From Candidatus Omnitrophota bacterium (GTDB lineage: Bacteria > Omnitrophota > Gorgyraeia > Duberdicusellales > 4484-171): a DNA stretch of 64,000 bases. A program made the translations under genes and the position numbers. The stretch lies in contig JAIPGM010000001.1 of the NCBI GenBank assembly GCA_021735655.1, positions 1 through 64,000 on the forward strand. The letters are read 5' to 3'. This document shows positions 27,639 to 29,279 of this stretch, one piece after another (positions within the stretch are counted from its first letter, which is position 1; each line of letters starts with the position of its first letter). The notes under the pieces are model-generated. The model was not told the DNA's origin and did not search any database. It worked only from the letters and a program-made list of their open reading frames with translations.

Positions 27639-29279
27639 ATGATACGACGGATATTTTTAATAATTGGCCTTGTTGTTTTAGGAACTATTTTTATCTCATC
27701 TGTCCAGTCTCAGGATTTTCTTTCTTTAGAGCCAGAATCAACTGAAATTCGTCTAATTGTCGGTGAAGTATATGTTTTTAGAGCTAATTCACCGCAGCGG
27801 GTATCAATTCGCAACCCGGAGATAGCCGATATTAGTAAGGTAGCTGATACAGAAGTGGTTATTATTGCTAAAGGTCTTGGTGAGACTACTTTAACTATTT
27901 GGGATACTGAAGGCGAGAAGTTATTCTATGTTCTTGTTTATCCGCAGGACGCAGTAAGGGTTCAGAAAAAGCTAGAGCAATTAATTAATCAGAATTTAAG
28001 AATTGAGAATGTTCATTATAGGATTAATGGAACTTCGGGCAAAGTTATGATTATGGGAGAAGTTACCCCAAGTCAATTTGAGCAAATAGAGCATGTTTTA
28101 TCAACTTACTACACTGATTCAGGAAGAAGTGATTTAATTGATAATCTTTTAACTACCACTGAAGAAAATAAGATGGTTGAAATTGATTGTCAGGTTCTTG
28201 AGATGAACAAGACTGATTTAGATCGGATTGGTTTTAAGTGGGTAGAGTATCTTCAGATAAGAGAGGAACCTTATACTGCTCCAACTGGTGATTCAGCTGG
28301 AGTTGAGACAACCCTTGATCGGGTTTCTCCTTGGAGCAGGCTTTGGCCGATACGTGAAGCTTCACGTGATGCTCTCCATACACGAATAAATATGTTGGTG
28401 CGTGATAACCGGGCGAAAGTTCTTTCACGTCCTAAACTTTTATGTTTAAGTGGAAAAGAGGCTAAATTAGTTGTTGGTGGTGAGGTGCCTTATGTTAGTG
28501 CCAGCACAACTGGTGCTGCCGGAACTAGTATCTCGGTTGAATATCGAGAGTATGGTGTTATTTTAAAGTTACGTCCGGACGTACTCACTAATGATAATAT
28601 TCTTCTTAATATTGGAACCGAAGTAAGCGAAATAGATTGGGCTAACGCAATTGTGGTTTCATCAATACAGGTTCCGGCTTTCCTTACTCGAAAGGCTGAC
28701 ACTTCTTTGAATGTGGTTTCTGGAGATACAGTTATTATCGGTGGATTAATTTCCAGTGATGAGTCAAATAATGTCGATAAGCTACCCTGGTTAGGTGATG
28801 TTCCGGTTATCGGAGGTCTTTTCCGCTCAAGAGAGTTTCAAGAGGATCAGACTGAACTAGTGATAACTCTTACTCCTTTAATTAAAAAAAGTCAGCTGGA
28901 GACAGCGATTCTAGAGGCTGCTGAAACTGTTGGCCCGGACGCTATCAGAAAACCGGTAATTTACCCTAACTATTTAGAAAGAGATGCTACTTTAAATAGG
29001 TATATTTTGCAGGTTCAAAAGATGATTTTTCAGTCTTTAGATTATCCACGCTTAGCTGAAGAAGCTGGTTGGCAGGGTGCGATGACCTTAAAGATGCATA
29101 TTAACCATACTGGCGAAGTGATTGAAGCTCGAATTGCTGAATCTTCAGGTTACGTATCTTTTGATAATAGCGTAATAGCTACGGCTAAAGCTTTAAGTCC
29201 CTATCCGCCATTTCCAATCGGGACTGAGTTTGAAGATCTTTGGATAGATGTACCGATAATCTATCGCATGGATCAATAG
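27639..29279 (+). CDS. cpaC: Tad secretin CpaC/RcpA with C-terminal TonB-C-like domain
   Basis: 546 aa. Signal peptide, pilus-formation N-domain, secretin core (VISGDTVIIGGLISSD...LPWLGDVPVIGGLFRS). Last ~90 aa resemble the TonB C-terminal domain (GWQGAMTLKMHINHTGEVIEARIAESSGYVSFDNSVIATAKA). Confidence 0.8.
   Translation: MIRRIFLIIGLVVLGTIFISSVQSQDFLSLEPESTEIRLIVGEVYVFRANSPQRVSIRNPEIADISKVADTEVVIIAKGLGETTLTIWDTEGEKLFYVLVYPQDAVRVQKKLEQLINQNLRIENVHYRINGTSGKVMIMGEVTPSQFEQIEHVLSTYYTDSGRSDLIDNLLTTTEENKMVEIDCQVLEMNKTDLDRIGFKWVEYLQIREEPYTAPTGDSAGVETTLDRVSPWSRLWPIREASRDALHTRINMLVRDNRAKVLSRPKLLCLSGKEAKLVVGGEVPYVSASTTGAAGTSISVEYREYGVILKLRPDVLTNDNILLNIGTEVSEIDWANAIVVSSIQVPAFLTRKADTSLNVVSGDTVIIGGLISSDESNNVDKLPWLGDVPVIGGLFRSREFQEDQTELVITLTPLIKKSQLETAILEAAETVGPDAIRKPVIYPNYLERDATLNRYILQVQKMIFQSLDYPRLAEEAGWQGAMTLKMHINHTGEVIEARIAESSGYVSFDNSVIATAKALSPYPPFPIGTEFEDLWIDVPIIYRMDQ

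Follow-up and report, generated by a model that had tools for sequence, protein, structure and literature searches.

Why should a channel of the outer membrane end in the domain through which an energy transducer of the inner membrane binds its targets? The question is raised by a gene at 27639..29279 (+) of a 64,000-nucleotide stretch of DNA from a Candidatus Omnitrophota bacterium (contig JAIPGM010000001.1, positions 1 to 64,000; in the following, the window), for which the list of open reading frames (ORFs) and the translation give 546 residues plus stop. A preliminary description, made from the sequence alone, had taken this ORF for a CpaC-type secretin fused to a TonB C-terminal-like domain (TonB_C), had quoted the peptide GWQGAMTLKMHINHTGEVIEARIAESSGYVSFDNSVIATAKALSPYPPFP from its tail, and had supposed that the tail either tethers the channel to another envelope component or gates it in an energy-coupled manner. 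Its coordinates are exact, the peptide lies at residues 478-527 of the product, and both halves of the fusion hold up, the secretin being a Tad secretin of the CpaC/RcpA type. As to function, the reading that we favour, with a probability of roughly 0.4, is that the tail is a motor-independent anchoring or docking module, placed at the position of the S-domain, which holds the secretin to a fixed element of the envelope such as the wall layer or a wall-associated protein.

The C-terminus of the secretin is a genuine TonB/TolA C-terminal domain, which together with its N-terminal helix spans residues 444-546 (28968..29276, +). The Pfam family TonB_C (PF03544) matches residues 467-543 with 50.6 bits against a cut-off of 24.6 (E 2.6e-13), overlapped by a weaker match to TonB_2, and the NCBIfam model TIGR01352 (tonB_Cterm) scores 56.4 bits against a cut-off of 27.1. 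A profile built from 36 such tails finds H. pylori TonB (6sly/5lw8, E ~3e-14) as the best solved structure, and the match covers the full length of the domain with its N-terminal helix; next come Neisseria TonB and HasB, and TolA matches weakly. Within the full-length AlphaFold2 model, residues 444-546 have a predicted local distance difference test score (pLDDT) of 89-97, and the tail modelled alone reaches a pLDDT of 88.2 with a predicted template-modelling score (pTM) of 0.77. The modelled topology is helix-helix-strand-strand-helix-strand (helices at residues 444-466, 471-476 and 506-518, strands at 480-489, 494-501 and 533-542), and the hallmark motifs are YP, GWQG, SSGY..FD, SPYPPFP and LWIDVPIIY. 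When the tail model is searched against the PDB with Foldseek, the top 23 matches are all C-terminal domains of TonB, HasB, FusB or TolA, and the superposition on 6sly gives a template-modelling score of 0.73 and a root-mean-square deviation of 2.3 Å over 94 columns. The tail resembles the C-terminal domains of TonB, HasB and TolA in its fold and in its YP and SSG motifs, and shares the extra N-terminal helix with H. pylori TonB and HasB. The fold that had been read into the last ~90 residues is thus confirmed by profile, model and Foldseek search alike, at a level well above chance; the profile search and the structure prediction that the preliminary description had proposed as checks gave, respectively, a PF03544 score above the cut-off and a confident TonB_C fold.

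What precedes the tail is organized as in other Tad secretins. The core (residues 253-415; 28395..28883, +) matches PF00263 with 154.8 bits (E 2e-45), and a phmmer search against the PDB finds 8jvb (E 2.9e-44) and RcpA (8odn, E 1.9e-37) as the closest solved sequences, with GspD and PilQ weaker at ~1e-21. The protein starts with a signal peptide, MIRRIFLIIGLVVLGTIFISSVQS, at residues ~1-24 (27639..27710, +), its cleavage site inferred rather than computed, which is evident in the sequence and as a helix at residues 2-22 of the model, where a stretch of low confidence follows. Next come a pil_N β-sandwich (residues 34-95; 27738..27923, +; PF13629 T2SS-T3SS_pil_N, 48.6 bits; pLDDT ~88-95) and a second periplasmic N-domain of α/β type (residues ~105-157; 27960..28097, +), which has a weak BON-like match (PF04972, 13.7 bits, below cut-off) and is modelled with helices at 105-119 and 144-157 and strands at 125-129 and 136-142. 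Between core and tail lies a linker (residues 416-443; 28884..28967, +), in part helical and then disordered, with a pLDDT below 50 at residues 431-442. Foldseek matches the full-length model to secretins (E down to 5.9e-22) and, separately, to TonB C-terminal domains; the model is a monomer based on a 69-sequence alignment, with a pTM of 0.46, and its domain arrangement is unreliable. The protein thus has a pore-forming secretin domain, pil_N rather than N0/STN or AMIN, and Tad-type closest relatives, and it stands in a tad/cpa locus (CpaB/RcpC, CpaE/TadZ, CpaF/TadA, TadB/C, Flp pilins) whose synteny recurs in 80 related loci. At the place of a short unstructured S-domain that binds a TadD-type pilotin with tetratricopeptide repeats (TPR) it has the folded TonB_C, and the locus has no TPR gene. 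By every feature tested it belongs to the Tad secretin family, apart from the TadD-type S-domain, which not all Tad systems have.

The window protein is 100% identical to the GenBank entry 'MAG: TonB family protein [Candidatus Omnitrophica bacterium]' (P0001; MAG, metagenome-assembled genome). A survey of CpaC homologues, likewise proposed in the preliminary description, covered the best 120 protein clusters, down to 27% identity, and recovered the same fusion in 118 of them by the tail profile, always with the tail at the extreme C-terminus; the secretins of P0116 and P0119 are without it. In P0120 the tail is decayed (37.6 bits against the tail profile, uncalled by Pfam), with a C-terminus that still reads LWIDVPLIFEM, and this secretin (L081, 8001-9566) is paired with an unusually long CpaB (6704-7996, 430 residues) in which a hairpin-like motif is followed by a charged extension of ~100 residues. 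Among the species representatives of GTDB we found 578 relatives and analysed the best 80 loci, all of which match to about residue 545 where the contig allows. Sixty-one of these loci are labelled Omnitrophota/Omnitrophica and one Candidatus Susulua (Omnitrophota), while 15 come from third-party MAGs named 'uncultured Planctomycetia/Planctomycetales' and three are unclassified; the labels of some MAGs are unreliable.

Across 69 homologues Y455, Y469, P470, G480, G492 and D509 are invariant, SSGY, PYPPFP and LWIDIPIVY are near-invariant, and YP is also kept, down to ~30% overall identity; within the protein the secretin core ranks first in conservation and the tail second, and the linker is poorly conserved. 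These alignments indicate that the tail is under purifying selection across the family. TonB_C as a whole is huge, with 86,527 matches at E<=1e-3 in an exhaustive HMMER search of 1.84 billion representatives, and in the best 150 of these, which were classified, per-domain scores of at least 90 bits occur only on Tad-core secretins or their fragments, which argues that the secretin tail forms a sub-clade of its own. The fusion is phylum-wide in Omnitrophota, and neither rare nor private. That two neighbouring genes were merged by a frameshift or a misassembly has next to no probability: we found no point in its favour, and the recurrence of the continuous architecture in more than 100 protein clusters of independent assemblies and in 80 GTDB genomes rules such an artefact out.

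Does the domain make the secretin an energy transducer? TonB and TolA consist of an N-terminal transmembrane helix with the motor-binding SHLS motif, a domain II that spans the periplasm, and a C-terminal domain that binds its target through β-strand addition (PMC12204202). Of these parts the secretin has the globular C-terminal domain. In place of a membrane anchor with SHLS it starts with a cleavable signal peptide that has neither a lipobox nor a TonB-type SHLS anchor and contains no His, and no S..H motif occurs in the first 40 residues of any of 120 homologues; in place of a Pro-rich domain II it has the Lys/Glu-rich linker of ~27 residues behind the secretin core. Since two of the three defining parts are lacking, the secretin falls outside the family of TonB energy transducers, from which it borrows only the C-terminal domain. 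The topology is moreover reversed: TonB and TolA are anchored in the inner membrane, bound to a motor and span the periplasm, whereas the domain of the secretin has its root in the outer membrane.

The genes around it were read in the window and in ~17 kb around each related locus, and what follows on absent genes applies to this area. Pfam finds no ExbB/ExbD, TolQ/TolR or TonB-dependent receptor families among ~55 window ORFs, mostly of at least 100 residues, a set that takes in the called genes, and over the 1.18 Mb of the window and related loci the tail profile matches nothing besides secretins, so that a separate, split or other TonB_C-bearing ORF is not found there. These observations bear on the supposition that the tail links the channel to a motor of the ExbBD or TolQR type, and that the proton-motive force opens and closes the gate. 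TonB-family proteins are indeed needed in trans for type IV pili, namely TonB3 with PocAB in P. aeruginosa and TonB2 in A. baumannii, where a TonB_C is likewise tied to a type IV pilus machine; but those proteins are motor-coupled, whereas the Omnitrophota domain is fused in cis without a motor link, and, being covalently rooted in the outer membrane, is on the wrong side of the periplasm to transmit the force of an inner-membrane motor. With TonB's motor-coupling parts lacking and no motor genes in the window, energy-coupled gating is unsupported and, we think, very improbable. Of the two functions first supposed, it is the tether that we favour, with a partner that can be named only as a candidate.

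How could such a tail serve without a motor? The secretin is exported whole by way of its signal peptide and has its barrel in the outer membrane, and for this reason the 13-14 tails of the ring would hang in the periplasm round the base of the barrel. Each tail would then grip a fixed element of the envelope, most probably the layer of the cell wall or a protein associated with it, with the β-strand-addition surface typical of the TonB_C fold. In doing so, the tails may supply in cis what the CpaD belt, the TsaP and AMIN domains (for PilQ) and the TadD pilotin supply in trans; the AMIN domains of PilQ, TsaP (LysM) and CpaD (OmpA-like) would be functional analogues that fix a secretin to the wall, with unrelated folds. 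We infer where the tails lie (in the periplasm, at the rim of the barrel), that they anchor the channel and what kind of partner they have, and binding to the wall in particular from the position of the tail, its tandem duplication in some relatives, and the absence of OmpA, LysM and AMIN near the locus.

The position is that of a site known to matter in other Tad secretins. In P. aeruginosa RcpA, the core is followed by an unstructured S-domain whose final four residues are the binding site of TadD, a TPR lipoprotein, and this binding is essential for assembly (PMC10499894). The CpaC barrel of Caulobacter is encircled by an OmpA-like lipoprotein, CpaD, which has been proposed to fix it to peptidoglycan; CpaC needs CpaD there, and the TadD orthologue is dispensable (PMC13170226). 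The Omnitrophota protein resembles RcpA (8ODN) and C. crescentus CpaC in its pil_N domain and core, in the content of its locus and in the CpaB hairpin. At the C-terminus after the core, however, where RcpA has its short unstructured S-domain, it has a folded domain of ~100 residues, and whereas CpaC relies on a separate OmpA-like lipoprotein, the window locus is without a TadD- or CpaD-like gene. Pfam detects no TPR, OmpA-like or LysM genes in the window's Tad locus, and none stand among the recurring families of the 80 loci, as defined by similarity clusters with Pfam run on the window members only.

Relatives of the module occur in tandem and on another kind of channel. Among the best 150 matches, 13 Tad secretins of 643-1091 residues (proteins within P0126-P0155) carry two TonB_C domains, and double-TonB_C secretins at L084 (10001-12394) and L085 (307-2238) stand in the same SurA-like/CpaB/secretin/CpaE::CpaF cassette as in the window, with a DUF192 gene behind it. 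A fragment of a double-TonB_C Tad secretin, P0270 (in the cluster of P0155), was deposited as 'Candidatus Hydrothermarchaeota archaeon', its source very likely being a mis-binned bacterial contig. Among the closest non-secretin carriers of tail-like domains are channels of the TolC family (OEP) in which a signal peptide is followed by two to six TonB_C repeats at the N-terminus (P0140, P0261, P0225, P0278 and P0283). P0278 combines six repeats with OEP in a cluster named Candidatus Omnitrophica, a word-indexed survey with it giving only three matches, probably because the query is repetitive; P0283 is named Candidatus Omnitrophota. At L086 (6001-8391) and L087 (6001-8076), genes of the TolC::TonB_C kind adjoin giant ORFs (>2,294 and >4,373 residues) and RND pumps. 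The TolC-family channels resemble the secretin in carrying TonB_C on a periplasmic terminus behind a signal peptide, and differ from it in that the domain is N-terminal, present in several copies and attached to another channel family.

In Omnitrophota, two unrelated classes of outer-membrane channels therefore bear TonB_C modules, in one to six copies, on their periplasmic ends. Because the arrays stand on unrelated channels, a general envelope anchor that works by avidity would fit them better than a Tad-specific 1:1 partner. One could also speculate that the Omnitrophota TonB_C is, throughout, an outer-membrane-rooted and motor-independent module, used singly or in up to six copies, which fastens Tad secretin and TolC-type ducts alike to the wall, or else to a periplasmic or giant-protein partner that they have in common; this generalization is tentative and on balance doubtful. 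If true, it would be a previously unrecognised way of tying outer-membrane channels down in Omnitrophota, which are ultra-small, host-dependent cells.

Several points weigh against an anchor in the wall. What the C-terminal domains of TonB and TolA are documented to bind, by β-strand addition, is protein (PMC12204202); that the TonB_C fold also binds peptidoglycan is not well established, ExbD rather than TonB being the protein indicated by the accessible literature. Per domain, the TonB_C repeats of the TolC channels reach no more than 48-74 bits with the secretin-tail profile, a level like that of H. pylori TonB, and may therefore have different ligands. No partner was identified among the CpaB tail, the SurA-like lipoprotein and the segments of the secretin, and the absence of OmpA and TPR genes holds near the loci rather than genome-wide. 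The main point, however, is the length of the linker, which over the family has a median of 27 residues, an interquartile range of 23-28 and a full range of 18-140, with a Lys/Glu-rich composition and 6.5% Pro. So constrained a linker also fits a defined docking site on the machine itself, and favours such a site over a loose tether to the wall; secretins with two TonB_C domains or with long linkers, and the TolC fusions, suggest the opposite.

A fixed site within the complex would also suit tails that serve the ring alone, in that contacts between tails, or between tail and barrel, of neighbouring subunits stabilise the 13-14-mer with no outside partner. The helical S-domains of T2SS and T3SS secretins do likewise, and the short linker agrees with such a site. 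TonB C-terminal domains, of which 1ihr and 1u07 are among the matches of the tail, can dimerise by strand exchange in crystals, and a tandem duplication could give an intramolecular pseudo-dimer. An even pairing of domains is, however, impossible in a 13-fold ring, long linkers (107-140 residues) and the TolC fusions disfavour a strictly local contact, and neither the linker nor the N-terminal leader has a conserved strand that could act as a ligand in cis. The candidates considered for such a ligand, in the leader, the linker or the disordered segment 200-243, were rejected because these regions are unconserved. We consider the self-contained ring rather improbable.

If the partner is instead a protein of the machine, the neighbouring genes offer two candidates. 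One is a SurA-like peptidyl-prolyl isomerase encoded two genes upstream of the secretin (25857..26756, +; Rotamase_2/3, SurA_N_3). It is not a known Tad component, and may possibly be a dedicated chaperone or a pilotin: the tail would be the handle by which this lipoprotein, or a different one, takes hold of the secretin monomer, conveys it through the periplasm and promotes its assembly, a structured equivalent of the pair formed by the RcpA S-domain and TadD. The location of the tail at the S-domain position suits this role, and so does the distribution of the gene, which is found in 76/80 loci and lacking only where a contig ends, and whose product has a signal peptide followed by G/A-C in 74/74 orthologues and is the sole conserved lipoprotein of the cassette. 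The gene is also present beside a double-TonB_C secretin (L084), divergent beside the degenerate tail (L081), and absent from L083, a control locus with a tail-less secretin. L083 is, however, the only clean negative control, so that common ancestry confounds the association. No strand-like motif is conserved in the tether that follows the Cys, and SurA-type chaperones bind unfolded clients rather than folded domains. The residue at +2, moreover, is mostly Asp, an inner-membrane retention signal in E. coli, although the rule may not transfer. Finally, the TonB_C repeats on TolC-type channels would be left unexplained. Taken together, we regard a role of the tail as a handle for a pilotin or chaperone as unlikely, if less so than a ring without a partner. 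A search of the lipoprotein for a strand-like ligand found none in the tether, and the pattern at its C-terminus is the ordinary ending of the SurA family. In the clustering of ORFs from the 80 loci for a hidden pilotin or OmpA-like gene, no recurring candidate emerged except this lipoprotein.

The other candidate is the alignment-complex protein CpaB/RcpC (26764..27576, +; SAF and RcpC domains, PF16976 with 75.7 bits), which is encoded in 80/80 loci and ends, in the window, in the hairpin motif PTIEIYRATEMEE at about 27520-27573. The tail could bind this C-terminal strand as a mimic of a TonB box, and so lock the inner-membrane-anchored CpaB ring to the secretin. In all 80 loci, the last part of CpaB is indeed a variable linker rich in Pro, Glu and Gln and, behind it, a conserved strand-like (Y)VEIYRGxxKE, and β-strand addition is the native binding mode of the TonB_C fold. 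An equal hairpin motif, KVEVISGNKAQYINVY, is nonetheless present in L083, the Tad locus whose secretin, P0119, is tail-less, and in P. aeruginosa and Caulobacter the hairpin is shown or modelled on the pil_N-type N-domain of RcpA or CpaI; the hairpin of RcpC, for instance, binds the RcpA N-domain (PMC12307814). Such a pil_N domain is present in the window secretin as well, and would be the expected dock for the CpaB hairpin there. Because it occurs beside a tail-less secretin and binds an N-domain in published systems, the (Y)VEIYRGxxKE strand is better seen as a generic feature of CpaB; these two observations demoted it as a TonB-box mimic to a minor rival, which we hold to be distinctly improbable.

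Has the fusion been described before? The preliminary description had it, to its author's knowledge, as not a described feature of Tad secretins. For searchable papers this stands, as we found none that describes a secretin::TonB_C fusion: the main genomics paper on Omnitrophota covers Tad and RcpA with no mention of TonB or secretin (PMC10066038), a survey of TonB/TolA evolution has no mention of secretins or Omnitrophota (PMC12204202), and a 2026 preprint reports 'TonB C-terminal domain' genes near pilus cassettes that flank giant ORFs, their nature unrecognised. It does not stand for the databases, where the phylum-wide architecture is already present, automatically named 'TonB family protein' at NCBI and called 'pilus assembly protein CpaC' at JGI. 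Labels of the former kind in Omnitrophota genomes conceal secretins and TolC-type channels.

The Tad pili of Omnitrophota are thought to attach to host or prey cells, and how Tad secretins are piloted, assembled and anchored varies among the few species studied, with TadD in Pseudomonas and CpaD in Caulobacter. A TonB-type tail built into the secretin would add a third solution, in which the business-end domain of a transducer is used in reversed topology; as a soluble domain of ~100 residues it also offers a concrete experimental handle. The fusion may in addition be a useful hint on type IV pili that depend, by an unexplained mechanism, on TonB paralogues acting in trans. If the wider generalization to channels of both classes is true, the fusion would predict, in the manner of a 'Rosetta stone', that TonB3/PocAB and TonB2 act by direct contact with the secretin; a contact between TonB3 and PilQ is a hypothesis in the literature.

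The remainder of the locus is that of a Tad machine with some features of its own. The order SurA-like gene, CpaB, secretin::TonB_C, CpaE::CpaF is intact in each of the 80 loci, contig ends aside. It differs from the loci of RcpA and CpaC in the SurA-like gene before cpaB and in the fusion of CpaE (ParA/MinD-like) and CpaF (T2SSE) into a single ATPase of 722 residues (29422..31590, +; Pfam, 74/80 loci), with AAA_31/CbiA/ParA at residues 4-185 and T2SSE at 369-647. A second, stand-alone T2SSE ATPase of 355 residues follows (31594..32661, +; PF00437, 157.9 bits), which only the closer relatives (L001-L022) have as a separate gene. Between it and the pilin array lie two secreted proteins without family and one protein with a helix-turn-helix (HTH)-like part. 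The array itself (36683..40785, +) consists of ~12 pilin paralogues of the Flp/class-III-signal type, with KAQSxLEY-type N-termini, and a TadE-like gene; the matches to Class_IIIsignal, Flp_Fap and TadE are weak, that to Class_IIIsignal falling just under the cut-off. Further downstream are a TadG-like protein (40822..42324, +; PF13400 Tad, 28 bits against a cut-off of 22.3) and the platform proteins TadB (43165-44013, +) and TadC (44029-44895, +), with T2SSF scores of 74.3 and 57.4 bits. Pfam scans of the window showed no prepilin peptidase (Peptidase_A24).

A few observations on the surrounding genes may be added. The N-termini of the pilins, (K/R)AQSxLEY, are nearer to class III (archaeal-type) signal peptides than to the canonical Flp G/XXXXEY. 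A 479-residue protein with an HTH-like N-terminus and no Pfam match (34981-36420, +), ~5 kb downstream of the secretin, recurs in 47 related loci, and a DUF192-like protein of 114 residues in 40. Immediately upstream of the Tad cassette stands a gene for a PINc ribonuclease (PIN_5, 200.9 bits; 25148-25729, -), with a homologous family at a similar offset in 20 related loci. Lastly, ~8.5 kb downstream of TadC, a stop-free frame of at least 3,546 codons (53363-64000, +) runs past the end of the window; this giant ORF begins with a signal- or transmembrane-like N-terminus, is rich in G, A, S, T and K, and agrees with the reported flanking of giant Omnitrophota genes by pilus and secretion machinery.

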